DNA of 64,000 nucleotides from a bacterium (GCA_030648255.1 JAUSHZ010000007.1:24404-88403); one strand, 5' to 3'. Positions 1,278 to 27,814 are shown, counted from the first letter of the stretch. Translations and numbers: made by a program. Notes: generated by a model from the letters alone, not told the origin.

Positions 1278-1489
1278 GTTAGAAGCTGTGTGAATTTTTA
1301 AATTTAATGATTTAAAAATTCATTACAGATTCTTACACCCCGTTAAGTGCGAGCGATGAGCGAGCTACTTAACTGGGGTTTGTTTGTATTCTTATCCACC
1401 CCAGTGAAGTAAAATTTGAGTACAAATTCACTTCACGGGGTTAAGCGATTGTATTTGTTCAGCCTCGGCTTCGGCTTCGCAAACAATCG
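1278..1489 (-). repeat. Intercistronic structured element, copy 1 (modules E1 / M-A / S4)
   Basis: Fills rpsK stop (1490) to rpsD ATG (1277). mRNA sense ends GCTTCTAAC-ATG. Has AT palindrome tgaatttttaaat/atttaaaaattca, hairpins ccccgttaagt/acttaactgggg and ccccagtgaagt/acttcacgggg, and stop-proximal stem gcgattgt/acaatcgc. Confidence 0.9.
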
Positions 1490-1945
1490 CTAAACCCTTC
1501 TTGGTTTTCTTGGCCGACAGCCATTATGAGGAATTGGCGTTACGTCTCTTATTGATTCTATCTCCAAGCCTTGAGCGGCAATAGTTTTTAAAGCTGAATC
1601 TCTTCCGCCTCCAACCCCCTTAACAAAAACAGCAACTTCTTTAATTTTAAATTGTTCGCAAGCTAAAGCTACCGCTTGGGCAACTTTAGAGGCGGCAAAA
1701 GAAGTGCCTTTCTTTGTGCCCTTAAACCCAACATTTCCAGCAGACCTCCAAAATAAGACATTTCCTTTTTCATCAGCCAAGCTGACAATAGTATTGTTAT
1801 AGGTTGAAGAAATATAAATTCTGCCCTTTCTAAAAGAAGTTCTGGTAGAAGCAACATTCAAATCTTTTCCTAATTTCTTTTCAACTTTATCTGTTTCTTC
1901 AATAAGCTCTTTTTCTGTTTTTTGTATTACTCTTTTCTTTCCCAT
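1490..1945 (-). CDS. rpsK: 30S ribosomal protein S11
   Basis: S11 core (RIYISSTYNNTIVSLAD..GNVLFWRSAG..GFKGTKKGTSFAA). ORF-track N-terminus MAKPLHSLTNTN is repeat sequence, so start is set at the conserved TACTAAC-ATG (1943-1945). Confidence 0.93.
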   Translation of the reverse strand: MGKKRVIQKTEKELIEETDKVEKKLGKDLNVASTRTSFRKGRIYISSTYNNTIVSLADEKGNVLFWRSAGNVGFKGTKKGTSFAASKVAQAVALACEQFKIKEVAVFVKGVGGGRDSALKTIAAQGLEIESIRDVTPIPHNGCRPRKPRRV

Positions 1946-2136
1946 GTTAGTATTCGTTAATGAATGAAGTGGCTTTGCCACGAATGAATTTACGAAGACT
2001 TACACCCTGTGGAGTAGAAATTTGCTCTGCAAATTTCTGTTTTAAATTTTTAGTAAAAAATTTAAAACTACTCCACGGGGTAAATTCGTCGTAAGCTCTG
2101 GCTTCGCCTGCTGGCTTTCCCTCGCTAACGGCTCAT
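1946..2136 (-). repeat. Intercistronic structured element, copy 2 (E4 / M-B / S3-like)
   Basis: rpsM stop to rpsK ATG. Closing stem caccctgtggagtag/ctactccacggggta encloses two AT hairpins. Stop-proximal stem aaattcgtcgt/acggctcattt abuts the TAA. Confidence 0.9.
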
Positions 2137-2526
2137 TTACTTTGGCCCTGGGGCTGTTTTTCTTCCAGAACTTACAGTTCTCTTAACATTGCCCCTTACA
2201 GTTCTTGAATTCTTTTTTGTTTTTTGCCCTCTAACAGTCAAGCCCTTTATGTGCCTGGTTCCTCGCCAACACTTAATCTCTTTTAATCTTTTAATATGGG
2301 CCACGTGCTCTCTTCTTAAGTCTCCTTCAATCTTATAACTTGCATCAATAACCTCTTTTATCTTCATTGCTTCTTGCTCGGTTAAATCTTTAGCTTTTTT
2401 CTGTGGCTCTATGTTGCATTGCTTTAAAATTCTTAAAGCCAATGGCCTGCCAATGCCAAAAACATAAGTCAAAGAAATGGCTATTTGTTTATTATCTGGA
2501 ATTGTGATGCTTGCTATTCGTGGCAT
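2137..2526 (-). CDS. rpsM: 30S ribosomal protein S13
   Basis: MPRIASITIPDNKQIAISLTYVFGIG.. is a typical S13. The MKIHTASN prefix in the ORF track is repeat sequence; start at CTAAC-ATG (2524-2526). Confidence 0.94.
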   Translation of the reverse strand: MPRIASITIPDNKQIAISLTYVFGIGRPLALRILKQCNIEPQKKAKDLTEQEAMKIKEVIDASYKIEGDLRREHVAHIKRLKEIKCWRGTRHIKGLTVRGQKTKKNSRTVRGNVKRTVSSGRKTAPGPK

Positions 2527-2751
2527 GTTAGAAGCTGTGTGAATTTTCAAATTTAATGATTTGAAAATTCATTACAGATTCTTACACCCCGTTAAGTGCG
2601 AGCGATTAGCAAGCTACTTAACTGGGGTTTGTTTATATTTCTATCCACACCCCAGTGAAGTAGAATTTAATTTCATTAAATTCACTTCACGGGGTAAATT
2701 CCGCCAACCGCTCAAACTTCGGCTCATCGCCTCGTTTTCGCGGGGCGTCAT
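2527..2751 (-). repeat. Intercistronic structured element, copy 3 (E1 / M-A / S2)
   Basis: rpmJ stop to rpsM ATG. Same E1 and M-A hairpins as copy 1. S2 arm ..cttcggctcatcgcctcgttttcgcggggcgtcattta ends in the rpmJ stop codon. Confidence 0.9.
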
Positions 2752-2868
2752 TTATGCGCCTTGGCGCTGTTTGTGTTTTGGAGTTTTGCAAATAACATAA
2801 ACCCTCCCCTTTCTTCTGGCGATTTTACAATCCTTACATAATTTTTTTACTGATGGTTTAACCTTCAT
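2752..2868 (-). CDS. rpmJ: 50S ribosomal protein L36
   Basis: Missed by ORF track (38 aa). Manual translation [38 protein letters not shown]. It is flanked by two element copies. Confidence 0.92.
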
Positions 2869-3085
2869 GTTAGAAGCTGTGTGAATTTTTAAATTTAATG
2901 ATTTGAAAATTCATTACAGATTCTTACACCCCGTTAAGTGCGAGCGATTAGCAAGCTACTTAACTGGGGTTTGTTTGTATTTCTATCCACACCCCAGTGA
3001 AGTAGAATTTGAGTACAAATTCACTTCACGGGGTAAATTCCGCTTGCCAATCGCGCTTCGCCTGCTGGCTCGCACTCTTGGAGCG
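2869..3085 (-). repeat. Intercistronic structured element, copy 4 (E1 / M-A / S1)
   Basis: infA stop to rpmJ ATG. S1 arm aaattccgcttgccaatcgcgcttcgcctgctggctcgcactcttggagcgtcat + tta stop. Confidence 0.9.
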
Positions 3086-3304
3086 TCATTTAAGTCTATA
3101 AACTATTCTGCCTCTTTTATCATCAATAGAGGCCATTTCAACCAACACCTTATCGCCCAACAAAATTTTTATGCGATTAATTCTAAGCTTCCCGGCCAAA
3201 TGCGCCAAAACCTCGTTTCCATTTTCCAATTGAATTTTAAATAAAAGACTAGGCAAAGCCTCTACAACTTGGCCTCTTTCTCTTATTGTATTAATTTGTT
3301 TCAT
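3086..3304 (-). CDS. infA: Translation initiation factor IF-1
   Basis: 72 aa S1-like OB fold; GQVVEALPSLLFKIQLENGNEVLAHLAGKLR..ILLGDKVLVEMASID. Confidence 0.93.
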   Translation of the reverse strand: MKQINTIRERGQVVEALPSLLFKIQLENGNEVLAHLAGKLRINRIKILLGDKVLVEMASIDDKRGRIVYRLK

Positions 3305-3320
3305 CTCGTTACGATTGTCT

Positions 3321-3349
3321 AAAATAGCAAATTATTCAAAAAAGGTCAA
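3321..3349 (-). promoter_or_regulatory. Sigma-70-type promoter for infA-rpmJ-rpsM-rpsK-rpsD-rpoA
   Basis: Minus sense TTGACC - 17 nt - TATTTT, preceded by GGGG; about 15 nt upstream of infA. Confidence 0.5.
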
Positions 3350-3358
3350 CCCCTTTGG

Positions 3359-4738
3359 CTAGAAAACCATTTCTATCTTTATCTTATCTAGGCTTTTTGG
3401 CGCTCTTTTTATCCAAAAAGGCCAAAATTGCGTGTCCAGTCGTTCAATTTGGGGGTAGCTATTATTCAATAAAATCTCCATATCTTCTTTAGATTTTCCA
3501 GCTAAATCCGCAATTAAGGCTGTTTGGTCAATATCATTATAAAGCTTGGCATCTGTTTTTAAATTAAAAATCAAACTCCCTTTTTCCGTAATGCTGCCTT
3601 TTGGAACTACGCTTGTCGCTAAGCTTTGTTCGTATAATTTCTTTGAAGAAGATAGTTTTGTATCAATAAAGCTTTTGGCCATATCCTGCAAATCTGATCC
3701 CTTAAAAACAATTGTCTTAGCTTTTATTTTTGCATAACAATTAAATTCAGCGAGGTTGGCGCCAACAGCTTGAGAACAAGAGAACTCGGGCTCGCCATAG
3801 TCAACTGATTCTTGGTTAAAAGAAAATCCAGCGGTTGTTTGCTCCTTCAAGCCCGAAACAGCCATTTTTTTTAACTCCCTAATCAAGCTTTCTTGAGCAT
3901 TATCCATATCTCCTTGAGTTACTTGATCAACTTCTTTCTGACCCCCGCCGTCAATTTTTTCTCTTGATTCACCCCAAACATTATAGTATAAAGCTGTTCC
4001 TGTTAATCCTGGAATAGAAAACTTAGCAGGGGCTATATTATATTCCTCTCCCTCCTGATCAGCGACAACCTGAACCTCTGTAATGCTTGGGGTTAATTTT
4101 CCATTAAACAATGTGGCTTGGGGCAAAGAAATCTTATTTTTTGCCCGATAAACCTTTCCATCTTTTGATGATATAAATCTTGTTCCTGCTTTTAAGTTTA
4201 AGGGCATTGGGGGATTAATATTATTGTAAACAAATATAGCGCCCGTTGCCCCAGATTGTTCTGTTTCTTTTCCAGTTGACTTAAATGTTTCCCATTTCTC
4301 TACTTCTTTTTCAATTACATTTCCGGGAATAATCTTTTTTTCAAAATCGATTTGCGCTTGAGAAAAAGAAACTTGAATCTCGTCTTTAATTGTAATTGGC
4401 TCTAATAGCGGTTTCACGCTTATTTCTGCTTTTGCCTGCATCGTTAAATATAAAAAGGCTCCCCCTAAAAGCAAAATGGCTACACCAATAACTATGGGAA
4501 TTTTTAGAGCAAGTCTTGGTAAAGTAAAAGAAACTCGAATTTCTTTTTTTCCCTTGCCACGTCGGAGTTCCGCAGGAACGGAGGCGGGTCTTTCTTTTTT
4601 CACCTCCCCCTTCTTCATCCCCTTTCTTGTAGGTGATTTTTTTTGAGGCTTAGTTGAAGCTAAAACAATTGGAAATTGTTCCTCTGTTTCTTCTGCTTCT
4701 TCCTCATCTGGATTTGTTATATCAATAATTTGCTTCAT
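3359..4738 (-). CDS. Membrane-anchored hypothetical protein with large extracytoplasmic domain
   Basis: 459 aa; Lys/Glu-rich N-terminus and one TM helix (IPIVIGVAILLLGGAFLYL). Weak memory-based resemblance to baseplate-J-like proteins annotated in CPR genomes. Preceded by a short element copy. Confidence 0.6.
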   Translation of the reverse strand: MKQIIDITNPDEEEAEETEEQFPIVLASTKPQKKSPTRKGMKKGEVKKERPASVPAELRRGKGKKEIRVSFTLPRLALKIPIVIGVAILLLGGAFLYLTMQAKAEISVKPLLEPITIKDEIQVSFSQAQIDFEKKIIPGNVIEKEVEKWETFKSTGKETEQSGATGAIFVYNNINPPMPLNLKAGTRFISSKDGKVYRAKNKISLPQATLFNGKLTPSITEVQVVADQEGEEYNIAPAKFSIPGLTGTALYYNVWGESREKIDGGGQKEVDQVTQGDMDNAQESLIRELKKMAVSGLKEQTTAGFSFNQESVDYGEPEFSCSQAVGANLAEFNCYAKIKAKTIVFKGSDLQDMAKSFIDTKLSSSKKLYEQSLATSVVPKGSITEKGSLIFNLKTDAKLYNDIDQTALIADLAGKSKEDMEILLNNSYPQIERLDTQFWPFWIKRAPKSLDKIKIEMVF

Positions 4739-4866
4739 GTTAGAAATTCTTAATTGAGTGGCGAATTTATGAGCCGTGAAATTTAGAAGTTTTTAGTCCT
4801 CCGTAAATTCAAACTTCGCCTACTGACTCGTTTTCATTAACGGATTACTTATTCTACCACAAAAAT
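4739..4866 (-). repeat. Intercistronic structured element, copy 5 (short form: E3 / no M / S3-like)
   Basis: alaS stop to the ATG of the 459 aa gene. Ends AATTTCTAAC-ATG. E3 stem ttcttaatt/aatttagaa and S stem agtcctccgt/acggattact are present, but the middle domain is missing. Confidence 0.8.
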
Positions 4867-6615
4867 TTACTGCTGCAAAATCGCTTTAATTCGCCGAACG
4901 CCAGCTGAACTGGCTTCTTCTTTAATAATTTTAAATACGCCCAAAGTTTTGGTATTTTCAACATGAGGACCAGCGCAAATTTCTTTAGAGAACTCTCCTG
5001 CGGAATAAACTTTCACTTTTTCTGGATACTTGTGGCCAAAAACTCCTGTGGCCCCTTCATCAAATGCTTTTTGAGTTTCCATTTCACGGCAAACAACAGG
5101 CAACTCCTTTTTTATTTGCTCGTTAACTAAGTCCTCCACTTTTTTTATTTCTTCTGGGGTTAATTTTCTTTCAAAAGAAAAATCAAACCTTATTCTTTCA
5201 GAAGTAATATTGCTACCTTTTTGCTGAACATCCCCTCCCAAAACTTGCCTTAAAGCAGCCAGCATTAAATGAGTGGCTGTGTGGTATTTTGTGGTTTGTT
5301 CAGAATCATCAGCTAAGCCGGATTTAAACTGCCCAGCACTGGCTGTTCTAGACAACTCTTGATGCTTTTTTAATTCCTCTTGAAAACCTTTTTCGTCAAT
5401 TTCCTTGTCTTTCTCCTTGGCAATCTCTCTTGTTATTTCTAAAGGAAATCCGTAAGTTTGATAAAGATTAAAAACCTCTTCCCCAGAAATAATTGGCATA
5501 TTTATTTTTTCAAATTCTTTTAATCCCCTGTCTAAACAAGTTAAAAATCTTTCTTCTTCTTTTTGTAGTTCATTTAAAATAAACTCCTGATTTTCTTTCA
5601 GTTCTGGGTAAACATTTTCATACATAGCAATAATAACTTTAGCAATCTCGCCCGTAAAAGCGCTCTCAATACCCAACAGCTTGCCGTATCTTATTGCCCG
5701 CCTTATTAATCTCCGCAACACATATCCTCTTTCTGTGTTTGACGGAACAAGCCCATCGGCTAATATAAAAACGCTGGCTTTTATATGGTCTGCAATAATG
5801 CGAAAAGATTTTGTATTTTCCTCATATTGCTTTCCCGAAATTTCTGAAATTCTATTTATTATCGGAGTAAACAGCTCTGTTTCATAAACATTACTTTTTC
5901 CTTGCAAAACCATTGTAGTTCTCTCCAGGCCCATGCCAGTGTCCACATTTTTCTGCGATAATTCTTCAAACTTTCCGTCTGCAGTTTTGTTATACTGCAT
6001 AAAAACATTGTTCCAAATCTCCACCCATTTTTTATCGCTTGGGTCAAATTTTTCAGGAACTTCCCCCTCTCCAACCCAATAAAACATTTCTGTGTCTGGG
6101 CCGCAGGGCCCTGTACTTCCTGCTGGGCCCCACCAATTATCCTCACGGCCCAAATAAGCAATCCGCTCTGGCTTAACCCCCAAACCTTGCCAAAGATTAA
6201 AGGCCCCCTCGTCTTTTGGTATATTATTTTCTGTTTCACCTTCAAAAACCGTAAAAGCTAACTTTTCCAAAGGAATATTTAATTCTTTAGTTAAAAATTC
6301 AAAGCTCCATTCAATGGCCTCTTTTTTAAAATAATCCCCCAAACTCCAATTACCAAGCATTTCAAAAAATGTTCCATGGGTGTTGTCCCCCACATCATCA
6401 ATATCACCCGTTCTAATACATTTTTGGCTATTGCAAAGCCGTTTACCTAGGGGATGGTTTTCCCCAAGCAAATAAGGCACCAATGGGTGCATACCTGCTG
6501 TGGTAAATAAAACTGTTGGGTCGTTTTCTGGAATTAAAGGGGCAGATGGTATTCTTTTGTGTCCCTTGTTCTCAAAAAACTTTAAATATTTTTCTCGTAT
6601 TTCTTTAGCTGTCAT
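4867..6615 (-). CDS. alaS: Alanyl-tRNA synthetase, short form
   Basis: 582 aa; class II AlaRS N-terminus (FTTAGMHP, WNNVFMQY) and editing-domain HTATHLM plus CAGPHV. Lacks the C-terminal domain of ~870 aa enzymes. Confidence 0.9.
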   Translation of the reverse strand: MTAKEIREKYLKFFENKGHKRIPSAPLIPENDPTVLFTTAGMHPLVPYLLGENHPLGKRLCNSQKCIRTGDIDDVGDNTHGTFFEMLGNWSLGDYFKKEAIEWSFEFLTKELNIPLEKLAFTVFEGETENNIPKDEGAFNLWQGLGVKPERIAYLGREDNWWGPAGSTGPCGPDTEMFYWVGEGEVPEKFDPSDKKWVEIWNNVFMQYNKTADGKFEELSQKNVDTGMGLERTTMVLQGKSNVYETELFTPIINRISEISGKQYEENTKSFRIIADHIKASVFILADGLVPSNTERGYVLRRLIRRAIRYGKLLGIESAFTGEIAKVIIAMYENVYPELKENQEFILNELQKEEERFLTCLDRGLKEFEKINMPIISGEEVFNLYQTYGFPLEITREIAKEKDKEIDEKGFQEELKKHQELSRTASAGQFKSGLADDSEQTTKYHTATHLMLAALRQVLGGDVQQKGSNITSERIRFDFSFERKLTPEEIKKVEDLVNEQIKKELPVVCREMETQKAFDEGATGVFGHKYPEKVKVYSAGEFSKEICAGPHVENTKTLGVFKIIKEEASSAGVRRIKAILQQ

Positions 6616-6621
6616 ATATTT

Positions 6622-7377
6622 CTAAATATTTTTTACCATAGCAGTAAATTCTTTTATATTCAATGAAGCGCCACCAACTAAGAGGCCATCAATTGCTTCA
6701 TTTTCTAAATATTTATTTGCGTTGTCTGACCCAACGCTTCCACCGTATAAAACTCTTACTTTCTCTTTGGCTTTTCTGCCGTAAATTTCAGCTATTAATT
6801 TTTTTATATATAAAGCCATTGTTAAGGCGTCGTCGGGAGCACAGGTTAATCCTTGGTTTGTGCTAATTGCCCACAAGGGCTCATAGGCTATAACAAGCTC
6901 TCCTACTTGTTGTTTTTTAATAGCTTTTAAGCTTTCCCTTAGCTTTTTCTCAACAATTTGAAATGTTTTGCTTTGGTTTCTTTCTTCTAATGTCTCGCCA
7001 ATGCAAACAACTGGTGTTAAACCCGTGCTTAACACGGCTTTTACTTTTTTGGCAGTCATCTCATTTGTTTCTCCCATTACCATTACTCTTTCAGAATGAC
7101 CTAAAATAACATACTTAACTCCTAAATTTTTTAGCATTGTTGGCGAAACCTCGCCCGTGAATGCTCCTTGATTTTCCCAAAAACAATCTTGCGATCCAAT
7201 TTTTACTGCCCCAACTCCAAAAACTTTTTTTGCCTCTGCTAAATAAACAAAGGGGGGGCAAACCACAACTTCTATTTTATTGTTTTTTATCCCCGCTCTC
7301 AATCCAACCATCATCTTTTGCGCCTCTTTTAGGGTTGTTGGATTACACTTCCAATTTGCAATAATTAGCTTTTTCAT
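6622..7377 (-). CDS. tpiA: Triosephosphate isomerase
   Basis: 251 aa; ANWKCN, GHSERV, AYEPLWAI and YGGSV motifs. Confidence 0.92.
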   Translation of the reverse strand: MKKLIIANWKCNPTTLKEAQKMMVGLRAGIKNNKIEVVVCPPFVYLAEAKKVFGVGAVKIGSQDCFWENQGAFTGEVSPTMLKNLGVKYVILGHSERVMVMGETNEMTAKKVKAVLSTGLTPVVCIGETLEERNQSKTFQIVEKKLRESLKAIKKQQVGELVIAYEPLWAISTNQGLTCAPDDALTMALYIKKLIAEIYGRKAKEKVRVLYGGSVGSDNANKYLENEAIDGLLVGGASLNIKEFTAMVKNI

Positions 7378-7381
7378 AGAT

Positions 7382-8368
7382 TTAAATCTTTATCTTTCTT
7401 AAATATTCAGCGGCTTTTTCTGGAGGCATTGTTATTATTTCAATGCCACTTCCCAGCTCAAAGCCAGCCCACACAGAAATGCGGGGCATAATAGTGAAAT
7501 GCCAATGGAAAAAAGAGTACTCTTTGTCATCGCACGGGCTTGTGTGTAAATAAAAATTATAATCTGGAAACTCCAAACCATAACCAATCTTTTTTAAAAC
7601 CTCGCCAAAAATTTGGGCTAAATCGCTTTTTTCTTCTTTGGTTATTTTTTCAAAATAAGGCAAGTGGTTTTTTGGAGATATAACAACTTCAAAATTCACT
7701 TTTGAAGCAAAAGGACAAATGGCTAAAAAATTGCTGTTTTCAAAAACAATTCTTGTTTGAACTGATTTTTCCGCCCTATTTGTAGCGCAAAAAAGGCACT
7801 GGCTTTTTTCTTTAAAAAACTCGCGAGAGGAATTTAAAGAGATAGACAAGTCTTTATCAAAAAATGGAATAGCAATAATTTGAGAATGCGGGTGAATTAA
7901 AGAAGCCCCGGCCATCTTGCCATGATTGTGGAAAATAGAAACATAGTTAACAATTTTTTCTTTTGATAGTTCAGTGTATCTTTGCTGGTAAATGCCAAGC
8001 AATTCTTCCCAATCTATTTGAGAAAAATCAGTTAATTGCTTTGAGTGGTCATTAAAAACCACAACTTCATGAAAGCCATTTGAAGGCAATCTTTGGAACA
8101 AAGCGTTGTCAGTTTTTAGTAAATTATTTTTCTGTGGAAAAAATGCGGGAAACTTATTGGGTATTACTACAAAATTTTTATCCCTGAATTTTTCCTGCGC
8201 AAAATAATCACAAAAAGCGCAAGGCATGTTGTCTATCGCCTCGTCTGTTTTTTTCTTTTTAAAATCCTCTGGTCTCTTACCCCTCCCCTCTGCCACCACC
8301 ACCCAATCCTTGTTAATAATGTCGTATCTCAACTCGGATTTTGATTTTACTACTTTTTTGAAAAACAT
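7382..8368 (-). CDS. Galactose-1-phosphate uridylyltransferase-like HIT-family nucleotidyltransferase
   Basis: 328 aa; CAFC zinc site and HPHSQI active-site motif typical of GalT/ADP-glucose phosphorylase. Confidence 0.8.
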   Translation of the reverse strand: MFFKKVVKSKSELRYDIINKDWVVVAEGRGKRPEDFKKKKTDEAIDNMPCAFCDYFAQEKFRDKNFVVIPNKFPAFFPQKNNLLKTDNALFQRLPSNGFHEVVVFNDHSKQLTDFSQIDWEELLGIYQQRYTELSKEKIVNYVSIFHNHGKMAGASLIHPHSQIIAIPFFDKDLSISLNSSREFFKEKSQCLFCATNRAEKSVQTRIVFENSNFLAICPFASKVNFEVVISPKNHLPYFEKITKEEKSDLAQIFGEVLKKIGYGLEFPDYNFYLHTSPCDDKEYSFFHWHFTIMPRISVWAGFELGSGIEIITMPPEKAAEYLRKIKI

Positions 8369-8438
8369 ATTTACTTATTATAGCAAAATCTTTAAATAAA
8401 CAAAAAGGCAGGGTTAAATTCCCCCGCCAAATCATAGA

Positions 8439-8573
8439 TCAAAAGTCCTGATTTGCTCTTGATTCCATAATTTCTTTGGATCTATCAATCATGCGAATCC
8501 TCTCCAGATATTTTTTAAGTAAACGCTCACGACATGTCTCTCTTTTTTTTAAAGTTCTTCTTCTTTTGTTCAT
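8439..8573 (-). CDS. Possible small basic protein (44 aa)
   Basis: MNKRRRTLKKRETCRERLLKKYLERIRMIDRS..; its ATG is preceded by AAGGAGGT, one of the few strong SD sites in the window. No family recognised. Confidence 0.35.
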   Translation of the reverse strand: MNKRRRTLKKRETCRERLLKKYLERIRMIDRSKEIMESRANQDF

Positions 8574-8584
8574 TTGAAACCTCC

Positions 8585-9337
8585 TTATTTTGTAAGAATT
8601 TCTGCTCCTTTTCTTGTAATGGCTATGGTGTGCTCGAAATGGCAAGATAGGGAGCCGTCGGCTGTTTTATAGCCGAAGCCGTCATTAGCTTTTCTTAATT
8701 TCCAATTACCCATTGTTACCATTGGCTCAAGGCAAAAAACCATGCCAACCTCAATCTTTTCACCAGAGTTTCGCTTGCCATAGTTAGAAATTTTTGGGTC
8801 TTCATGCAATGCCTTGCCAATACCATGCCCGCACAAATCCCTAACCACATTAAACCCTTGGTATTCAACAAACCTTTGCACAATATTGCCAATATCTCCA
8901 AAAGTATTACCCGGCCTTGCTTTAGCAATGGCTAGTTTCAACGCTTTTTGCGTGGCTTTAATAAGCCGAATCTTTTCCGAATCCTCTGCTTCAGGCTTGC
9001 CCACCAGAGTAGAAAAAGCGTAATCAGAAAAATAATCTTGATATTTAATTCCTAAATCCAAACAAAGCAAATCGCCCTGCTTTAGAATATAACCATCGGG
9101 CACCCCATGCACCACCATATCATTAATAGAAATACAAGAAACACAAGGAAATCCTTCGTAATCTTTAAAGGCTGGTTCGGCCCTATATTCTAAAATAAGA
9201 TTTTCACACGCTCTGTCTAATTCTTTAGAAATAATGCCCGGAGCTATCATTGGCTTTATTTTTTCAATAATTTCAGCCAAAATTTTTCCAGCCTCTCGCA
9301 TTATTTTTATCTCATTTTCTGTTTTAATAATTATCAT
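8585..9337 (-). CDS. map: Methionine aminopeptidase type I
   Basis: 250 aa; pita-bread metal-ligand blocks (LDLGIKYQDYFSD, CGHGIG, FCLEP, FEHT). Confidence 0.92.
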   Translation of the reverse strand: MIIIKTENEIKIMREAGKILAEIIEKIKPMIAPGIISKELDRACENLILEYRAEPAFKDYEGFPCVSCISINDMVVHGVPDGYILKQGDLLCLDLGIKYQDYFSDYAFSTLVGKPEAEDSEKIRLIKATQKALKLAIAKARPGNTFGDIGNIVQRFVEYQGFNVVRDLCGHGIGKALHEDPKISNYGKRNSGEKIEVGMVFCLEPMVTMGNWKLRKANDGFGYKTADGSLSCHFEHTIAITRKGAEILTK

Positions 9338-10001
9338 TTTTCTTTCTCACTTCATCTAAAATATCTTGAAAAACTTTTTCAATTGCCTGTTCGCCATTTA
9401 TCTTAATAAGTCGCTTTTTCTTTTTAAAATATTTTATTACCTTGCTCACGTCTTTATCAAAATAATCAAGCCGATTATTTATGGCTTGGGGAATATCGTC
9501 TGCTCTTTCTTCTAAATCACCGCCGCACTTATCGCAAGCTTGCAAGCTTTTATAATCCCCAACCCAAGGAATAATCTGTCCGCAATTCTTGCAAATTCTT
9601 CTTTTAGTTAATCTATCAAAAGCCTCTTTTCTTGAAATATTAAGCAAAATAACCATAGTACTTTTTTTTCTATCTAAGTAATCCAAAAAATCGTCTAGGT
9701 CTTTTGCCTCCTGCAATCTTCTTGGCATTCCATCCATAATAATTCCTTGCCCCTCTTTAACATTAAAAGCAATTTCGTGCATCCATAAAGTAGTAGCAAT
9801 ATCGTCAAATGGCAAGCCACCCCCTTCAATCAATTCTTTAATATGATGGCCCATTTCTGTATCTTGCCCAGCTAATTTTCTAAATAAAGAACCTGAAGAA
9901 ATGTAATAAAGATTACCAAAATGCTCACCTAAAAGCTTAGCTTGCGTACCCTTGCCACACCCCGCCCTGCCAATTAGAACAAAATTTATAGGTTTATGCA
10001 T
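9324..10001 (-). CDS. adk: Adenylate kinase (zinc LID type)
   Basis: 225 aa; P-loop GRAGCGKGTQA and LID with CKNCG..CDKCG. Confidence 0.9.
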   Translation of the reverse strand: MHKPINFVLIGRAGCGKGTQAKLLGEHFGNLYYISSGSLFRKLAGQDTEMGHHIKELIEGGGLPFDDIATTLWMHEIAFNVKEGQGIIMDGMPRRLQEAKDLDDFLDYLDRKKSTMVILLNISRKEAFDRLTKRRICKNCGQIIPWVGDYKSLQACDKCGGDLEERADDIPQAINNRLDYFDKDVSKVIKYFKKKKRLIKINGEQAIEKVFQDILDEVRKKNDNY

Positions 10002-10239: not shown

Positions 10240-10524
10240 TTATCGAAAAACTACAAAATACCCACAGTTGACCCCATAGGGTTGATCAGTTGAATCGTCT
10301 GCTATAGAAATAAGTGTAAGGTTAGAGTGATTGGCAATAAATTTAGATAAAGAATTACCAAATGCCGCTTGAGTGGCAGCGAAATAATATACACCATTCC
10401 CATAATTAACTGGGGAAATAGTTTCTGTGGAATTAACTTTTGTTTCTTTGCCCGCATTACTACCACAGCCACAAATTATAAGAACAAGAACCATTAGAGA
10501 TATCAATATCGCTATTTTTCTCAT
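10240..10524 (-). CDS. Small lipoprotein
   Basis: 94 aa; signal peptide ending LIICGC (lipobox-like). GAGGAG SD 8 nt upstream. Inserted between secY and adk. Confidence 0.7.
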   Translation of the reverse strand: MRKIAILISLMVLVLIICGCGSNAGKETKVNSTETISPVNYGNGVYYFAATQAAFGNSLSKFIANHSNLTLISIADDSTDQPYGVNCGYFVVFR

Positions 10525-12221: not shown

Positions 12222-12409
12222 GTTAGTAATTCTTAATTGAACGGCGAATTTATGAGCTGTGAAATTTAGAATTTCTTACACCCCGTGGAGTAGAAATTTG
12301 CTCTGCAAATTTCTATTTTAAATTTTTTACTAAAAATTTAAAATTACTCCACAGGGTAAATTCCGCTTGCCAATCGCGCTTCGATTACTCAGCACTCTTG
12401 GAGCGTCAT
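12222..12409 (-). repeat. Intercistronic structured element, copy 6 (E3 / M-B / S1 variant)
   Basis: rplO stop to secY ATG. Ends ATTACTAAC-ATG. Closing stem caccccgtggagtag/ttactccacagggta. Confidence 0.9.
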
Positions 12410-12841: not shown

Positions 12842-13007
12842 GTTAGTAATTCTTAATTGAACTGCGAACGATTAGTGAGCTGTGAAATTTAGAAGTACTT
12901 ACACCCTGTGGAGTAGAAATTTGCTCTGCAAATTTCTGTTTTAAATTTTTAGTAAAAAATTTAAAACTACTCCACGGGGTAAATTCCGCCTTCCACTCAA
13001 ACTTCGG
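12842..13007 (-). repeat. Intercistronic structured element, copy 7 (E3 / M-B / S2; S2 continues into the rpsE 3' end to about 13040)
   Basis: rpsE stop to rplO ATG. S2 homology (..cttcggctaatcgcctcgttttcgtggggcgtcattta) extends 33 nt into the rpsE coding sequence. Confidence 0.9.
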
Positions 13008-13526
13008 CTAATCGCCTCGTTTTCGTGGGGCGTCATTTAACTGTTGTAAGGCCGCTACTGTTGCCCGGGCGATATTTAATTTATTTCTTGATCTTGACAA
13101 TAACTTTGATGATATATTCCTAATTCCAGCTAAACTGCAAATAACTCTTACCTGGCCGCCAGCCACCAACCCCCTACCTTTTGCCTGAGGCCTTAACAAA
13201 ACCCTTGCTGGGCCATACTTTGCTGTAACCTCATGGGGAATTGTTTCCTCAAACATTGGAACAGAAATTAAATTCTTCTTGGCCAACCGAGTTGATTTTT
13301 CAACAGCAATTGCCACATCAGGCCCCTTGGCCACACCTAATCCAATTTTTCCCTTTTTATTGCCAACCACCACAACTGCCCTAAACCTCATTTGCTTTCC
13401 TCCCTTTGTTACTCTTGTAACTCTGGCTAAATCTAAAACCACCGAGTCGAACTCATCTTTCGGTTTTGCTGGAAATTGACCTCTTCTTTCTCTATTAAAT
13501 TTTCCTTGTTGTTGCTGTTGTTCCAT
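13008..13526 (-). CDS. rpsE: 30S ribosomal protein S5
   Basis: 172 aa; VTRVTKGGKQMRFRAVVVVGN..GLGVAKG and S5 C-terminal domain. The last ~10 codons ([10 protein letters not shown]) are encoded by element sequence. Confidence 0.93.
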   Translation of the reverse strand: MEQQQQQGKFNRERRGQFPAKPKDEFDSVVLDLARVTRVTKGGKQMRFRAVVVVGNKKGKIGLGVAKGPDVAIAVEKSTRLAKKNLISVPMFEETIPHEVTAKYGPARVLLRPQAKGRGLVAGGQVRVICSLAGIRNISSKLLSRSRNKLNIARATVAALQQLNDAPRKRGD

Positions 13527-13720
13527 GTTAGTAATTCTTAATTGAACGGCGAACGATTAGTGAGCTGTGAAGTTTAGAAGTACTTACACCCTGTGGAGTA
13601 GAAATTTGCTCTGCAAATTTCTGTTTTAAATTTTTTACTAAAAATTTAAAACTACTCCACGGGGTAAATTCCGCTTGCCAATCGTGCCTCACCTGCTGGC
13701 TCGCACTCTTGGAGCGTCAT
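13527..13720 (-). repeat. Intercistronic structured element, copy 8 (E3 / M-B / S1)
   Basis: rplR stop to rpsE ATG; same modules as copies 6/7, with S1 arm ending ggagcgtcat+tta. Confidence 0.9.
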
Positions 13721-14065: not shown

Positions 14066-14258
14066 GTTAGTAGTCGTTAATGAATGAGTGGCGATTAGCC
14101 ACGAGTGAATTTACGAATTCTTACACCCTGTGGAGTAGAAATTTGCTCTGCAAATTTCTGTTTCAAATTTTTAGCAAAAAATTTGAAACTACACCACGGG
14201 GTAAGTCCTCCGTAAGCTCTGGCTTCGGCTAATCGCCTTGCCATCGCTAACGGATTAC
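14066..14258 (-). repeat. Intercistronic structured element, copy 9 (E4 / M-B / S3)
   Basis: rplF stop to rplR ATG. E4 apex ggcgattagcc (14090-14100) is the exact reverse complement of S3 apex ggctaatcgcc (14227-14237). Confidence 0.9.
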
Positions 14259-14819: not shown

Positions 14820-15021
14820 GTTAGAAATTGTGTGAGTTTTCAAGCTATAATCTTTTTTATGGCTTGAAAACTCATTACAAGTTCTTACACCCTGTGGAGT
14901 AGAAATTTGCTCCGCAAATTTCTGTTTTAAATTTTTTACTAAAAATTTAAAACTACTCCACGGGGTAAGGTATCCGTAAGCTCGGGCTTCGCCTGCTGGC
15001 TCGCCCTCGCTAACGGCTACC
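14820..15021 (-). repeat. Intercistronic structured element, copy 10 (E2 / M-B / S3)
   Basis: rpsH stop to rplF ATG. E2 hairpin gagttttcaagc..gcttgaaaactc. S3 stem aaggtatccgt/acggctacctt carries compensatory changes relative to copy 9. Confidence 0.9.
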
Positions 15022-15411: not shown

Positions 15412-15612
15412 ATTAGAAGTTGTGTGAGTTTTCAAGCTATAATTTTTTTTATGGCTTGAAAACTCATTACAAATTCTTATACCCCGTGGAGTAGAAATTT
15501 GCTCTGCAAATTTCTGTTTTAAATTTTTTACTAAAAATTTAAAACTACTCCACAGGGTAAGTCCTCCGTAAGCTCTGGCTCGGCTGTTGCCTCGCCATAG
15601 CTAACGGATTAC
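15412..15612 (-). repeat. Intercistronic structured element, copy 11 (E2 / M-B / S3)
   Basis: rpsN stop to rpsH ATG. Only copy ending CTAAT-ATG instead of CTAAC-ATG. Confidence 0.9.
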
Positions 15613-15798: not shown

Positions 15799-15974
15799 GT
15801 TAGTGATTCTTAATTGAACGGCGAGCGATTAGCGAGCTGTGAAATTTAGAATGACTTACACCCCGTTAAGTGCGAGCGATTAGCGAGCTACTTAACTGGG
15901 GTTTCGTTGTATTCTTACCCCACCCCAGTGAAGTAGAATTTGAGTACAAATTCACTTCACGGGGTAAGGCTCTG
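15799..15974 (-). repeat. Intercistronic structured element, copy 12 (E3 / M-A / S5)
   Basis: rplE stop to rpsN ATG. Ends ATCACTAAC-ATG. The motif cgagcgattagcgagc occurs in both the E3 and M-A loops. Confidence 0.9.
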
Positions 15975-16577
15975 CTACCGCTCAACCTTCGCCTTCGGCT
16001 CGGCTTCACGGGCAGAAGCCTTAAATGGAAACCCCAGCAATCTTAATAATGCAGCGCCTTCTTCCTTTGTTTTGGCTGTTGTTGAAATTGTTACTTCTAA
16101 TCCAAAAATGCCTTTCTCTTTTTCAACTTTCAATTCAGGAAATGGAACATACTCTTTAAATCCAACTGTAATATCTCCTTGGCTTGTCATAGATTTCTCT
16201 TCAACGCCCCTAAAGTCTCTAGACCTTGGCAAAACAACCCAAATCAACTTCTCTAAAAAATCATACATTCTTTTCTTTCTTAAGGTGCAGCTGGCTCCAA
16301 CCGCCATACCTTCTCTTAGCTTGAAAGCAGCAATTGATTTTTTTGCTTTATTTAGAGATGGTTTTTGCCCGGTAATAGCGGCTATTGATTGAGCAATATA
16401 TTCTTCCGCTTTTTCTCTCTCACTGGCGCTTTTTCCAATAACCATTTTGCCAAAACCGCAATTAACAACAATCTTCTTTATTTTTGGCACAGCCATAACA
16501 GAACTATACCCGAATTTCTTCGTCATTTCAGGAATAACTATTTTATTGTATTGCTCTTGTAATTTCATATTTTTCAT
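15975..16577 (-). CDS. rplE: 50S ribosomal protein L5
   Basis: MKNMKLQEQYNKIVIPEMTKKFGYSSVMAVPKIKKIVVNCG.. Start is ambiguous (16577 or 16568). The ORF-track N-terminal 19 aa lie over an upstream hairpin. Confidence 0.9.
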   Translation of the reverse strand: MKNMKLQEQYNKIVIPEMTKKFGYSSVMAVPKIKKIVVNCGFGKMVIGKSASEREKAEEYIAQSIAAITGQKPSLNKAKKSIAAFKLREGMAVGASCTLRKKRMYDFLEKLIWVVLPRSRDFRGVEEKSMTSQGDITVGFKEYVPFPELKVEKEKGIFGLEVTISTTAKTKEEGAALLRLLGFPFKASAREAEPKAKVER

Positions 16578-16586
16578 GAAGCTGTC

Positions 16587-16641
16587 GAAGCTGTTGAAAC
16601 CGAGCTTCTGGAAGCCCTTGAAGCTCGGTTTCAACAGCTTC
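16587..16641 (-). promoter_or_regulatory. 22-bp perfect hairpin just upstream of rplE
   Basis: gaagctgttgaaaccgagcttc - 11 nt - gaagctcggtttcaacagcttc, between the rplX stop (16656) and the rplE start. It replaces the modular element at this junction. Confidence 0.7.
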
Positions 16642-16655
16642 AGGCTCCATAGCTT

Positions 16656-16961: not shown

Positions 16962-17177
16962 GTTAGAAATTGTGTGAGTTTTCAAGCTATAATCTTTTTT
17001 ATGGCTTGAAAACTCATTACAAGTTCTTACACCCTGTTAAGTGCGAGCGATGAGCGAGCTACTTAACTGGGGTTTGTTTATATTATTCTCATACCCCAGT
17101 GAAGTAGAATTTGATTACAAATTCACTTCACGGGGTTAAGCGATTGTAATGCTCGGCTATCGCCTCGCAGACAATCG
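16962..17177 (-). repeat. Intercistronic structured element, copy 13 (E2 / M-A / S4)
   Basis: rplN stop to rplX ATG. Combines the E2 hairpin of copies 10/11/15 with the M-A and S4 modules of copy 1. Confidence 0.9.
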
Positions 17178-18375: not shown

Positions 18376-18566
18376 GTTAGAAGCTGTGTGAATTTTCAAA
18401 TTTAATGATTTGAAAATTCATTACAGATTCTTACACCCCGTGGAGTAGAAATTTGCTCTGCAAATTTCTGTTTTAAATTTTTAGTAAAAAATTTAAAACT
18501 ACTCCACAGGGTAAATTCCGCTTGCCAATCACGCTCGCCTGCTGGCTCGCGCTCTTGGAGCGTCAT
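18376..18566 (-). repeat. Intercistronic structured element, copy 14 (E1 / M-B / S1)
   Basis: rpsC stop to rplP ATG; E1 AT palindrome combined with the M-B three-way junction. Confidence 0.9.
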
Positions 18567-19576: not shown

Positions 19577-19776
19577 GTTAGAAATTGTGTGAGTTTTCAA
19601 GCTATATTTCCTTATGGCTTGAAAACTCATTACAAGTTCTTACACCCCGTGGAGTAGAAATTTGCTCCGCAAATTTCTGTTTTAAATTTTTAGTAAAAAA
19701 TTTAAAACTACTCCACAGGGTAAATTCCGCTTGCCAATCGCGCTTCGCCTGCTGGCTCGCGCTCTTGGAGCGTCAT
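19577..19776 (-). repeat. Intercistronic structured element, copy 15 (E2 / M-B / S1)
   Basis: rpsS stop to rplV ATG. Confidence 0.9.
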
Positions 19777-20103: not shown

Positions 20104-20107
20104 AAAA

Positions 20108-20902: not shown

Positions 20903-20904
20903 AA

Positions 20905-21348: not shown

Positions 21349-21349
21349 A

Positions 21350-21988: not shown

Positions 21989-22014
21989 GTTGGCTATTTT
22001 CTATCCACTGCTTA

Positions 22015-22641: not shown

Positions 22642-22941
22642 GTTAGAAGCTGTGTGAATTTTTAAATTTAATGATTTAAAAATTCATTACAGATTCTTAC
22701 ACCCTGTGAAGTAAAATTTGAGTACAAATTTTAATTTTAAATTTTTTACTAAAAATTTAAAATTACTTCACGGGGTTAATAATCCGTAAGCTCAAGCTTC
22801 GCCTGCTGGCTCGCTCTCGCTAACGAATTATTAAAAACACGAGGCATTAACTCCCCGCATTTTTGTTAAAAACTCAAGGGTTAAATTCTTCCCACTTTCA
22901 AGGGTTAAACTAATTAAGTTTTACCTTGAACTCTATATTAA
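22642..22941 (-). repeat. Intercistronic structured element, copy 16 (E1 / hybrid M / S3-like, about 22642-22838) plus a unique ~100 nt spacer
   Basis: rpsJ stop to rplC ATG. Closing stem caccctgtgaagtaa/ttacttcacggggtt and S stem ttaataatccgt/acgaattattaa. The spacer 22839-22941 holds two copies of caagggttaaa. Confidence 0.85.
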
Positions 22942-23280
22942 TTAAATCGTTTTAATTTCAATTTCCACGCCCGCTGGCAAGGTTAAATCACGAAGCGACT
23001 CAATAAATCTTTGGTTTGGATTTGTTACTTCTATCAATCGCTTGTGCACTCTCATTTCAAATTGCTCTCTAGCATCTTTGTGAACAAATGTTGACCTGTT
23101 TACTGTGTATTTTTTTATTTCTGTTGGCAAAGGCACAGGCCCAACCATTTCCACGCCCGACCTGCCCGAAATTTCTGTAATCTGATGGCACGAAGCGTCA
23201 ACCACCTTGCTATCATATGATTTTAGCTTAATTCTTAGCTGAACCGCCTGCTCCACTGGTTTTTCTTTTACTGTTGCCAT
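22942..23280 (-). CDS. rpsJ: 30S ribosomal protein S10
   Basis: 112 aa; RIKLKSYDSKVVDAS..LPTEIKKYTVNRS. Confidence 0.95.
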   Translation of the reverse strand: MATVKEKPVEQAVQLRIKLKSYDSKVVDASCHQITEISGRSGVEMVGPVPLPTEIKKYTVNRSTFVHKDAREQFEMRVHKRLIEVTNPNQRFIESLRDLTLPAGVEIEIKTI

Positions 23281-24479: not shown

Positions 24480-24535
24480 AGATTTAAATTATTTTATTAT
24501 GTTTATTATATTGATTAAAAAAATAAAGTCAATGC

Positions 24536-24805
24536 TTAAAACGGTAAATCATCTAAAGTTAGATCAGCTGTGGGCTTTTCTGACGCTGAAATTTTTTCTA
24601 ATTGCGATTCTGGTTTTGCTTCTAACTCTATTTCTTCAACTGTAATGGGCGTTTTTGATTCTAATAAAGCCGAAGTTAAATCTAAATTTTTTCTTTTTGT
24701 TTTTTCGTACTCGTTAAAAGACATAACCACCATAATATCGTCATTGTCAATTATGAGAACCTTTCCCTCTTCAGAAACAATTTGTTTTATTTTAAATAAA
24801 TCCAT
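24536..24805 (-). CDS. Small acidic hypothetical protein between fusA and tuf
   Basis: 89 aa. The N-terminal beta-rich part (KVLIIDNDDIMVVMSFNEYEK) is reminiscent of Phd/YefM-like antitoxins. The C-terminus ..DLTLDDLPF resembles the SSB acidic tip (DDDIPF). Confidence 0.5.
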   Translation of the reverse strand: MDLFKIKQIVSEEGKVLIIDNDDIMVVMSFNEYEKTKRKNLDLTSALLESKTPITVEEIELEAKPESQLEKISASEKPTADLTLDDLPF

Positions 24806-24898
24806 AATCTTAGAAACCAGAATTCCGAAACCAGAATTCCGAACTTTAATAACTAGAAATTTTTCGGATTTCGGATTTCGTGCTTCGGATTTTTATTG
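24806..24898 (-). repeat. Short tandem-repeat hairpin region between fusA and the 89 aa ORF
   Basis: Plus strand: gaaaccagaattcc x2 (24813-24840), then tcggattt x3-4 (24865-24892); the two repeat sets are mutually complementary. Confidence 0.7.
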
Positions 24899-27001: not shown

Positions 27002-27016
27002 AAGTTAATCGGTTTA

Positions 27017-27079
27017 GTCATTCTGAGCCAACGGGCGAAGAATCTCGGCCGAGACCCTTCGCTAATCACTTAGGGTGAC
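27017..27079 (-). repeat. GC-rich imperfect palindrome between rpsG and fusA
   Basis: gtcattctgagc..gcgaagaatctcggccgagacccttcgc..cttagggtgac. Arm mismatches are G-U compatible only in minus (mRNA) sense. Resembles the gtcattctgagc..gaagaatc palindromes seen in many genomes (memory). Confidence 0.7.
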
Positions 27080-27088
27080 AACAATATT

Positions 27089-27550
27089 TTATCGGGCTAG
27101 ATAAGCAAAAGCTTTGTTGGCTTCGGCCATTTTATGGACATTGATTTTCTTTTTCACTGCCTCGCCCTCCCCCTTGCTTGCCTGCATAATTTCTTCAGCT
27201 AATCTGCTGGCCATATCTTTGCCTTTTTTCTTTTGGGCAGATGAAATAAGCCATCTCATGGCCAAGCTCAAAGCCCGTTTGTCTTTAACCTCTCTGGGCA
27301 CCTGATAAGTAGCTCCCCCAACACGCTGTGGCCTCACTTCAACTTTTGGAGCAGCTTCTTCTAAAGCTTTTTCAAAAATATCCATTGGCTCTTGTTTGGT
27401 TTGCTCTTTGACAATATCAAAAGCGCTATAAACAATTTTTTGGGCAATGCTTTTTTTGCCTTGAGTCATTACAGTGTTTATAAATTTTGCAACAATAACG
27501 CTGTCATAAGATGAATCAGGCAATATTTCTCTTGTTTTAAATTTAGCCAT
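27089..27550 (-). CDS. rpsG: 30S ribosomal protein S7
   Basis: 153 aa; KFINTVMTQGKKSIA..VEVRPQRVGGATYQVP. Confidence 0.95.
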   Translation of the reverse strand: MAKFKTREILPDSSYDSVIVAKFINTVMTQGKKSIAQKIVYSAFDIVKEQTKQEPMDIFEKALEEAAPKVEVRPQRVGGATYQVPREVKDKRALSLAMRWLISSAQKKKGKDMASRLAEEIMQASKGEGEAVKKKINVHKMAEANKAFAYLAR

Positions 27551-27814
27551 GTTAGTAATCGTTAATGAATGAGTGGCGATTAGCCACGAGTGAATTTACG
27601 AGGACTTACACCCTGTGAAGTAAGATTTGAGGTCTCTTCCAAAAAGTGTATTCTCTTAAACTTTTAACTATTTTTCTCTCGCATCAATTGTTAATAATCG
27701 TACCCTCAAATCTTAATTTTAAATTTTTTACTAAAAATTTAAAATTACTTCACGGGGTAAATTCCGCCAACCGCTCAAACTTCGGCTCATCGCCTCGTTT
27801 TTGCTGGGCGTCAT
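27551..27814 (-). repeat. Intercistronic structured element, copy 17 (E4 / hybrid M with ~85 nt extra arm / S2)
   Basis: rpsL stop to rpsG ATG. Extra arm closed by aagatttgagg/ccctcaaatctt. The S2 arm ends gggcgtcat+tta. Confidence 0.88.

Follow-up and report, generated by a model that had tools for sequence, protein, structure and literature searches.

We analysed a stretch of 64,000 nucleotides (nt) of DNA from an uncultured bacterium of the Patescibacteria (GCA_030648255.1, JAUSHZ010000007.1:24404-88403; hereafter the window, with positions counted from its first letter), in which 17 gaps between minus-strand genes, from 1278 to 27814, share one modular sequence family, every copy co-oriented with the genes. 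These copies are probably non-autonomous members of a composite intergenic selfish element, similar to MITEs (miniature transposable elements with inverted repeats) and tolerated in an essential operon. Their central module, B, reads as an internally deleted derivative, lacking the open reading frame (ORF), of an inverted-repeat-bounded cassette of ~290 bp, which in relatives still encodes a GIY-YIG nuclease of 89 residues. The family is built of modules, carries homology to the nuclease gene in module B, lies in one orientation directly against an ATG, is gained and lost between species, and has inner hairpins that flip.

An earlier sequence-only reading had described 17 related gap fillers in the same orientation, ending in YCTAAC followed by ATG, and both statements held when the gaps were read in mRNA sense and searched with hidden Markov models (HMMs) of the modules: 16 copies end in TCTAAC or ACTAAC and one in TCTAAT. 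The arm motif ACCCYGTGRWGTR occurs 32 times, against 0.17 expected from shuffles, always within 1.3-27.8 kb and twice per copy in 16 copies. That reading was also right to place no copy in 28-64 kb, where the module HMMs find no match even at E<10, and the equal density in both orientations that it had named as evidence against itself was not seen, the orientation-specific HMMs of modules A and C matching the minus strand only. By our own tally from the window ORF list, the element fills 17 of the 37 co-oriented junctions in 0.6-28.3 kb and 0 of ~33 in 28-64 kb (Fisher p = 2e-6), and the flanking genes are the str-S10-spc-alpha ribosomal-protein genes (NCBIfam profiles). The claim that copy-free gaps are limited to overlaps and spacings of 4 nt or less failed, given the empty gaps rpsG>fusA (87 nt), fusA>tuf (419 nt) and rplC>rplD (26 nt). 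Copies measure 128-300 nt (n = 17) and resemble MITEs in size, in being multi-copy and in being non-coding: stop codons occur in 50 of 51 copy-frames (0-12 per frame; 17 copies in three frames), and no internal ORF is conserved across the 17 copies. Because the family recurs in five independent metagenome-assembled genome (MAG) assemblies, it is not an assembly artefact.

Each module is a self-contained closed hairpin. Module A, proximal to the stop codon, has four sequence variants (A1, TAAATGACGCTCCAAGAG...; A2, TAAGTAATCCGTTAGCG...; A3, TAGCGATTGT...; A4, TAAATGACGCCCCGCGAAAAC...). In module B a long stem, ACCCYGTGRAGT...ACTYCACRGGGTGTAAG, with inverted arms of 12-18 bp, encloses a pair of hairpins, termed inner in B1 and tandem in B2. 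Module C consists of one hairpin of three types (C1/C1', C2 and C3), followed by an unpaired 8-nt WTYCTAAC (once CTAAT) and then by ATG.

The nuclease cassette behind module B

In a sister species, Candidatus Paceibacterota STD1_120 (JAQULB01), one locus (L039) holds two tandem elements with an intact ORF between the B arms, oriented as the flanking genes, so that the order of the intact element is A-B arm-ORF-B arm-C-CTAAC-ATG. The ORF encodes a GIY-YIG catalytic domain (Pfam PF01541, E 9e-18), and the nearest solved structures of its product are the UPF0213 proteins 1zg2 and 1ywl, members of the minimal, Slx1-like GIY-YIG family of bacteria that PMC1564403 describes. Intact cassettes are also present in the Gribaldobacteria MAG PFAV01 and in metagenomes. 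The B modules of the window align collinearly to this cassette, over its 5' arm, ORF nt 65-88, and the last ~30 nt together with the 3' arm; copy 17 has three collinear matches to the L039 gene (Table 1). In the B hairpins the stems are made up of codons for ENLKLRFEE and RLKSY(L/F)TG, both invariant in 33 homologues and the former within the catalytic core, which marks the gene as the source of the hairpins rather than their product. B1 and B2 are progressively deleted shells of the nuclease cassette.

Close homologues of the protein number 478, at 84-92 amino acids (aa), and those with a named source come nearly all from MAGs of the Patescibacteria/Parcubacteria group; none of the 33 aligned homologues has an appended DNA-binding domain (NUMOD or helix-turn-helix), all consisting of the catalytic domain only. 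A scan of metagenomes confirmed at least 562 cassette loci, in Patescibacteria. Among 50 cassettes with both ends located (46 of the 80 metagenome loci kept, plus 4 others), length is 282-309 bp and the ends are conserved as TTYACCCYGTTAAATAA...TTATTTAACAGGGTRA(A), with inverted repeats of 12-18 bp (TTYACCCYGT..AA...TT..ACRGGGTRA) and the stop codon within the 3' repeat. A co-oriented gene starts no more than 150 nt downstream, often at 0-6 nt, in ~50 of the ~66 loci with enough sequence; the upstream ORF frequently terminates at or within the 5' arm, and the genes that cassettes precede are many and unrelated, with no single homing locus. We rejected a general targeting of ribosomal-protein operons, found at 2 of the 80 metagenome loci; in another lineage a cassette (L113) occupies the rplO>secY junction. 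Viral contigs yielded no cassette, and the eleven 17-mer matches found there have no module HMM support and are probably due to chance. At five loci of other Patescibacteria (L093, L096, L104, L107 and L128) a distinct conserved hairpin, TGATTTTTATAGTCGTTAC..CCTTAAAAATCA, stands behind the cassette and ends 2-3 nt before the downstream ATG; it looks like an analogue of module C.

Gain, loss and flipping

A genome-collection scan with the B 3' arm as query identified five relatives with the family: JAQULB01, the Gribaldobacteria MAGs PFAV01 and PFAX01, CAYVXQ01 and JAZDKU01. JAQULB01 has 27 arm matches over seven contigs; its ribosomal-protein genes are ~82% identical to those of the window at the nucleotide level, with four-fold sites only ~0.52 identical. 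Eight ribosomal-protein junctions differ in occupancy between the two, as in the insertion polymorphism of MITEs: the element is in the window only at rpsS>rplV, rplO>secY and rpsK>rpsD, and in JAQULB01 only at rplP>rpmC, rpsQ>rplN, rplB>rpsS, rplW>rplB and tuf>rpsJ. Empty junctions are tightly coupled, of the TAA-N1-5-ATG type (TAGTATG, TAATTATG, TAATTTTATG and TAAGCATTATG, the last being rpsS>rplV of JAQULB01), and at rplO>secY JAQULB01 has a 69-nt gap from which the element is absent. Filled junctions read TAA[ATGACGC...TTCTAAC]ATG, and the N-terminus of the downstream protein is the same as at empty ones.

Modules of the same type are 0.90-0.97 identical between the window and JAQULB01, whether or not their junctions are orthologous. 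An orthologous signal among the copies was rejected, since those at orthologous junctions are not mutual best matches; the nearest relative of a copy is often at a non-orthologous junction in another species (the window rplV copy and JAQULB01 rpsM, 0.93), and copy 15 is nearest to JAQULB01 copies at other junctions (0.92-0.93). Near-saturated synonymous sites combined with such high module identity imply either that copies spread after the species diverged and were exchanged between them, or that constraint is very strong. Genes linked to the element in the sister genome, identified by eye from translations and ORF starts with no family search, appear to include frr, L25, rpoC, nusA, mreB and secG, along with response regulators, a histidine kinase, pilC and virB4-like genes; because regulators, a kinase and secretion genes are among them, the element is not confined to highly expressed genes.

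The 3-6 hairpins per copy of the sequence-only reading were recovered, and folding is far stronger than that of shuffled sequence, the minimum free energy (MFE) of three representative copies (3, 8 and 9) being -66 to -94 kcal/mol (z -7.5 to -10.8). There is no strand asymmetry: sense minus antisense MFE has a mean of +1.3 kcal/mol (n = 38, p = 0.12). One position of the B outer stem is C.A in seven copies and U.G in four, which are reverse complements of each other; inner hairpin 1 has TACT or AGTA as its loop and inner hairpin 2 AGAG or CTCT; the order of the inner hairpins is exchanged in several relatives, and other palindromes are nested in B loops. Modules A and C, unlike the inner B hairpins, are never inverted. 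The B hairpins behave as recombining or template-switching palindromes and not as fold-specific RNA, and equal sense and antisense folding together with two-way inner hairpins points to DNA-level palindromes rather than sequence-specific RNA; neither the sense-specific structure nor the conserved loops of a structured RNA are found in the elements. An excess of terminator-like matches on the antisense strand of B1 as the cause of the fixed orientation was rejected, because flipped B interiors in relatives put the T-run in sense. In PFAV01 (L016 ~3470-3560, L036 and L052) B modules carry a further GC-rich palindrome, GATCCTGAGGGCAGACCTCCCC...GGAGGTCTGCCCTCAGGATC, within the loop of their inner hairpin 1; it appears to be a second repeat family targeting hairpin loops.

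Rfam covariance models agree with the previous statement that no known RNA family is matched. Searched at gathering and E-value thresholds, the window and 18 related loci gave only tRNAs, DUF3800-V RNA and miRNA-like noise; within the elements nothing reached the gathering threshold, and at E<1 the only matches were generic miRNA-hairpin noise. The DUF3800-V RNA (RF02964) exceeds the gathering threshold at 48983-49080 (+) of the window and at L029 1-75 (-) of the sister genome.

Junctions, start codons and the individual copies

Placement is tied to the downstream start codon: 56 of 57 non-redundant C modules from the window and its relatives stop 0-3 nt short of a real gene's ATG, the spacing being 0 nt and rarely 2-3. 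Among 44 complete A modules of the same origin, 30 begin at the stop codon of an ORF of at least 60 codons; eight are unclassified, several of them after the stop of short genes (rpmJ) or starting inside the upstream ORF; and six directly follow a -10 box (e.g. TGGTATAATAAGTAATCC), so that the element can serve as a primary 5' untranslated region (UTR). In the window, copies had been said to begin at or next to the upstream stop codon, with copies 5 and 16 as exceptions. Most do, and the two exceptions stand, copy 5 having no module B and following a TGnTAGAAT -10-like box and copy 16 having ~110 nt of extra 5' sequence; to them must be added copies 7 and 12, where the rpsE and rplE ORFs run into module A, and in copy 4 the infA stop codon is the TGA within the element's ATGACGC. 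Copy 5 is probably a primary 5' UTR. The 5' end of the element gives stop codons in two frames (TAAATGA, TAAGTAA), and UAA stands 1 nt before AUG in nearly all copies. In copy 9, A2 is an inverted copy of C3 (common GGCGATTAGCC), and the copy therefore folds into a single long hairpin.

None of the 17 copies has a Shine-Dalgarno (SD)-like tetramer within 20 nt of ATG, which is not special, because the whole genome is nearly SD-free: an SD motif (GGAG, GAGG or AGGA at -20 to -4) precedes 1 of 45 non-element window genes, the 94-aa ORF at 10240-10524, against a 9% background. Native upstream regions are A/U-rich, and the element's unpaired linker (AUUUCUAAC/AUUACUAAC) fits this. A TANNNT hexamer lies 5-10 nt before ATG in 10 of the 45 non-element genes (e.g. 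TATAATAAGTAAATATG at galT), against a 12% background. From such sequence features, leaderless or A/U-rich translation initiation seems likely in this organism. A consensus scan detected no sigma-70-like sense-strand promoter at C ends.

Table 1. Copies of the element in the window, with the nuclease-gene remnants of copy 17
Feature	Position	Strand	Composition and remarks
Copy 1, rpsK>rpsD	1278..1489	-	A3-B2-C1; TTCTAAC+ATG end
Copy 2, rpsM>rpsK	1946..2136	-	A2 variant (TAAATGAGCCGTTAGCG)-B1-C3
Copy 3, rpmJ>rpsM	2527..2751	-	A4-B2-C1; MFE -93.9 kcal/mol, z -10.1
Copy 4, infA>rpmJ	2869..3085	-	A1-B2-C1; infA stop is TGA in ATGACGC
Copy 5, alaS>459-aa gene	4739..4866	-	A2-C2, 'empty' B site; TGnTAGAAT -10-like box upstream at 4851-4859
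Copy 6, rplO>secY	12222..12409	-	A1-B1 (flipped arms: ACCCT..GGGGT)-C2
Copy 7, rpsE>rplO	12842..13039	-	A4-B1-C2; 5' half of A (13008-13039) is the last rpsE codons
Copy 8, rplR>rpsE	13527..13720	-	A1-B1-C2; three separate closed hairpin domains, MFE -66.3 kcal/mol, z -7.5
Copy 9, rplF>rplR	14066..14258	-	A2-B1-C3; MFE -76.8 kcal/mol, z -10.8
Copy 10, rpsH>rplF	14820..15021	-	A2-B1-C1'
Copy 11, rpsN>rpsH	15412..15612	-	A2-B1 (flipped arms)-C1'; sole copy with CTAAT+ATG end
Copy 12, rplE>rpsN	15799..15974	-	B2-C2; A remnant extends upstream into last ~13 rplE codons
Copy 13, rplN>rplX	16962..17177	-	A3-B2-C1'
Copy 14, rpsC>rplP	18376..18566	-	A1-B1 (flipped arms)-C1
Copy 15, rpsS>rplV	19577..19776	-	A1-B1 (flipped arms)-C1'
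Copy 16, rpsJ>rplC	22642..22941	-	~110 nt unrelated 5' sequence, then A2-B1-C1
Copy 17, rpsL>rpsG	27551..27814	-	A4-extended B1-C3
GIY-YIG remnants of copy 17	inside 27604..27727	-	three collinear matches to the L039 gene
Remnant of copy 17	27704-27727	-	ORF nt 65-88, E 4.5e-10
Remnant of copy 17	27662-27679	-	ORF nt 184-201, E 4e-4; patch in copy 17 only
Remnant of copy 17	27604-27632	-	ORF nt 234-262, E 4.7e-13

Other features of the same region deserve mention. The rplX>rplE gap at 16566-16655 (-), 90 nt long, holds a palindrome of another kind, 70 nt long and almost perfect (-60 kcal/mol when a stretch of 171 nt is folded), that ends ...GACAGCTTC and then ATG, and resembles C1 without TAAC; rplE starts at ATG 16565, as fits the L5 profile, and not at the TTG 16634 of the mechanical ORF list. 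The fusA>tuf gap, 79% identical in JAQULB01, contains an 89-aa ORF at 24536-24805 (-) whose N-terminus is by eye antitoxin-like (Phd/YefM-like), preceded at 24810-24895 by tandem and inverted GAAATCCG...TTCGGAATTCTGGTTTC repeats. Between secY and infA, within the ribosomal-protein cluster, 3359-10001 (-) carries adk, map, galT, tpiA, a short alaS of 582 aa and a protein of 459 aa whose GlxA/Kelch-like match is weak, and the rpsE-rplO interval has no L30 gene. In JAQULB01 (L074 6648-7173, sense coordinates) an insert of ~500 nt separates rplC from rplD, which are 26 nt apart in the window; it seems to carry a small membrane-like ORF on the opposite strand.

Selfish element or leader

In this Gribaldobacteria-like clade the nuclease cassette is flanked by the 5' hairpin of module A and by the 3' hairpin of module C with its WTYCTAAC linker, and this composite sits from stop codon to ATG, or from -10 box to ATG, always co-oriented with the downstream gene and presumably transcribed with the operon. 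Copies may spread by nuclease-dependent copying, through either homing-like repair or hairpin-directed cutting or transposition, and may be exchanged between related species. They could persist because the 5' end supplies stops in two frames, because every module folds on itself, and because the A/U-rich linker would keep the AUG unpaired and accessible, which may suffice for SD-less initiation; host benefit is treated as secondary. A domesticated MITE-like repeat had been among the earlier proposals. Its MITE-like part is upheld by gain and loss between species and by a module B that aligns as an ORF-less derivative of the nuclease cassette, whereas 'domesticated' is not. A MITE would, moreover, have an autonomous parent with a known insertion sequence (IS) transposase, and the parent here encodes a GIY-YIG nuclease, no known family of transposases.

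It is important to set out what weighs against a selfish origin. The 64-kb window has no intact nuclease gene, and we know of no transposition chemistry for the minimal GIY-YIG domain. The flanks of 50 full cassettes repeat no more than a shuffled-pair control, so that target-site duplication (TSD) is not detected apart from one case, the cassette at L179, which has AATTACGTAAT, an 11-nt palindrome, on both flanks; copies of A2 type have TAA on both sides, which is ambiguous in AT-rich DNA. Inverted symmetry of the whole element (A as the reverse complement of C) is clear in copy 9 only and marginal in three others. The cross-species identity of modules could stem from purifying selection instead of recent spread, and the near-invariant CTAAC linker, abutting ATG behind three otherwise diverged C types, resembles a functional constraint more than an insertion remnant. 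A selfish origin also accounts neither for the source of modules A and C nor for the clustering of copies in the ribosomal-protein operon, which is peculiar to this clade (about half of all copies for the window, ~10 of the 27 arm-pattern matches for JAQULB01). Because these last observations, the CTAAC-ATG abutment included, are left over, an exapted RNA role, be it mRNA processing, end protection or hairpin-positioned initiation, stays a live rival.

Such a role, possible in our judgement though rather unlikely, would make the elements RNA punctuation or stabilisers: RNase III acting on the long B stem, or a cut at or near CUAAC/AUG, would split the polycistron, with 3' ends shielded by the A and B hairpins and 5' ends set by the C hairpin or by an AUG with almost no leader. 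The CTAAC linker and 0-nt spacing kept across three diverged C types and several species are what it would predict, as is the tolerance of only 2-3 extra nt, which a leaderless or near-leaderless 5' end would require; the excess of TANNNT before other genes suggests that leaderless mRNAs may be used, the element doubles as a primary 5' UTR, and the operon with the highest expression is strongly enriched in copies. Folding without strand asymmetry speaks against it, however, as do the freely inverted inner hairpins with nested insertions, which imply that no specific RNA tertiary fold is kept, the lack of a match to any ribozyme or leader family, the response regulators, kinases and secretion genes among the linked genes of the sister genome, and the empty junctions, which work without the element.

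It is tempting to speculate further, with still less confidence, that the cassette represents a new class of mobile element in which the only protein, a minimal, structure-specific Slx1-type nuclease, acts on the hairpin or cruciform of its own repeats, and that in this CPR clade the derivatives without an ORF, along with hairpins A and C and the linker CUAAC, were co-opted as a standard intercistronic leader, giving independent SD-less starts of each ribosomal-protein cistron through near-leaderless processing or hairpin-positioned entry.

We regard it as improbable that the folded element bridges termination and reinitiation, joining the upstream stop to the downstream AUG so that the ribosome reinitiates across ~200 nt in place of TAA-N-ATG coupling. 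The tight coupling at empty junctions, the closure of each module into a hairpin, the UAA just ahead of AUG, and the predicted fold of copy 9, in which the first nucleotides behind the stop codon pair with the ones immediately ahead of UAACAUG, are all consistent with such a bridge. Against it, six copies lie behind a promoter -10 box and have no cistron before them, neither copy 5 nor copy 16 begins at a stop codon, pairing of A with C reaches significance in no more than one to four copies, and a conserved small ORF to relay ribosomes is lacking, stop codons running through all frames. An internal promoter near the 3' end of the element, firing a leaderless mRNA at the ATG, is very hard to credit: C2 and C1' do have weak -10-like hexamers (AAGAAT, CACAAT) 7 nt before ATG, in an organism that seems to use short or absent leaders, but the consensus scan shows no sense sigma-70-like site at any C end, C1 (CACAGC) and C3 (AACGAW) are without the conserved A2/T6 of a -10 box, and bona fide TGnTATAAT boxes upstream of A in promoter-proximal copies would make an internal one redundant. 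Membership in a described repeat class (REP/BIME-RAYT, IS200/IS605-type PATE, Correia/ERIC-type MITEs, MIRU or integron attC) is just as remote a prospect, since palindromes, intergenic position, co-transcription and modular mosaicism are held in common, but the linked ORF encodes a GIY-YIG nuclease and neither an HUH nor a DDE enzyme, there is a single orientation with no TSD and no spanning small ORF, the genes involved are core housekeeping genes, and no description of the element was found in the literature.

The selfish-cassette reading matters in several ways. Bacterial stand-alone GIY-YIG proteins of the Slx1/UPF0213 type have so far been treated as putative repair enzymes; one subfamily of them, at no fewer than 562 loci across Patescibacteria, would instead behave as cargo of an inverted-repeat-bounded selfish cassette with MITE-like offspring, adding a nuclease type to the prokaryotic mobile-DNA repertoire. 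We found no description in the searchable literature of an inverted-repeat-bounded Slx1-type GIY-YIG cassette or its derivatives. In a streamlined genome of the ~1-Mb class, the most conserved operon can evidently bear structured inserts of ~200 nt at half of its cistron boundaries, which raises the question of how the SD-less ribosomes of the candidate phyla radiation (CPR) initiate internal cistrons behind a stable hairpin. In practical terms, the repeats mislead gene callers, with spurious TTG-extended starts in the mechanical ORF list and two ribosomal-protein C-termini encoded by the element, and they could be used as strain markers.

Among known systems, co-transcribed MITEs (Correia of Neisseria, enterobacterial ERIC/IRU and RPE of Rickettsia) are likewise short, multi-copy, non-autonomous palindromes in transcribed intergenic DNA, with an ORF-bearing parent, presence/absence polymorphism between relatives and long mRNA hairpins, and they sometimes supply stop codons or C-terminal residues to a neighbouring ORF. 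The present element differs in that the enzyme of its parent is a minimal GIY-YIG nuclease instead of a DDE/HUH transposase, that no TSD was found, and that it is strictly gene-oriented, abuts the start codon, is a three-module mosaic and fills 17 of 37 junctions of one operon region. MIRU elements are also intercistronic and operon-oriented and fill the space from stop to start, but are direct tandem units of 40-100 bp with small ORFs overlapping the flanking stop and start codons; we rejected this identity because the element is palindromic, with stops in nearly all frames and no spanning ORF. An integron attC array (R''(RYYYAAC)...R'(GTTRRRY)) was rejected as well, with no genome-wide search for an integrase, since CTAAC on the start-codon side is the reverse order and the genes are those of core ribosomal proteins. 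The RNase III hairpins of T7 early genes and the tRNA punctuation of mitochondria are similarly related, structured, co-oriented elements at the cistron boundaries of a polycistronic RNA, an analogy for how a transcribed copy might act; the elements described here are mobile, variable inside and gene-derived.

Closer to the parent are segA-G, the free-standing GIY-YIG homing genes of T-even phages, which like the cassette lie between co-oriented conserved genes, are host-transcribed, have hairpins around the start, are patchy among relatives and degenerate by deletion, with a GIY-YIG catalytic domain in both (in the window as remnants only). Seg proteins have 200-250 aa, a DNA-binding domain, an HEase/UvrC lineage and one homing locus each; the cassette protein is a catalytic domain only, of Slx1/UPF0213 type, and its gene is inverted-repeat-bounded, occurs at many unrelated junctions and has multi-copy ORF-less derivatives. 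REPIN-RAYT pairs likewise join a nuclease gene flanked by a palindrome to many dispersed ORF-less intergenic hairpins of the same palindrome, but RAYT is an HUH Y1 enzyme encoded outside the hairpin, and REPINs lie in either orientation, usually 3' of genes, and are not tied to a start codon; here, where a genome-wide search for RAYT was not possible, the associated ORF is GIY-YIG and the orientation single. What emerges from the comparison is a selfish nuclease gene with MITE-like offspring, whose parent resembles both the free-standing GIY-YIG homing genes and the REPIN-RAYT pairs while departing from the defining features of each.

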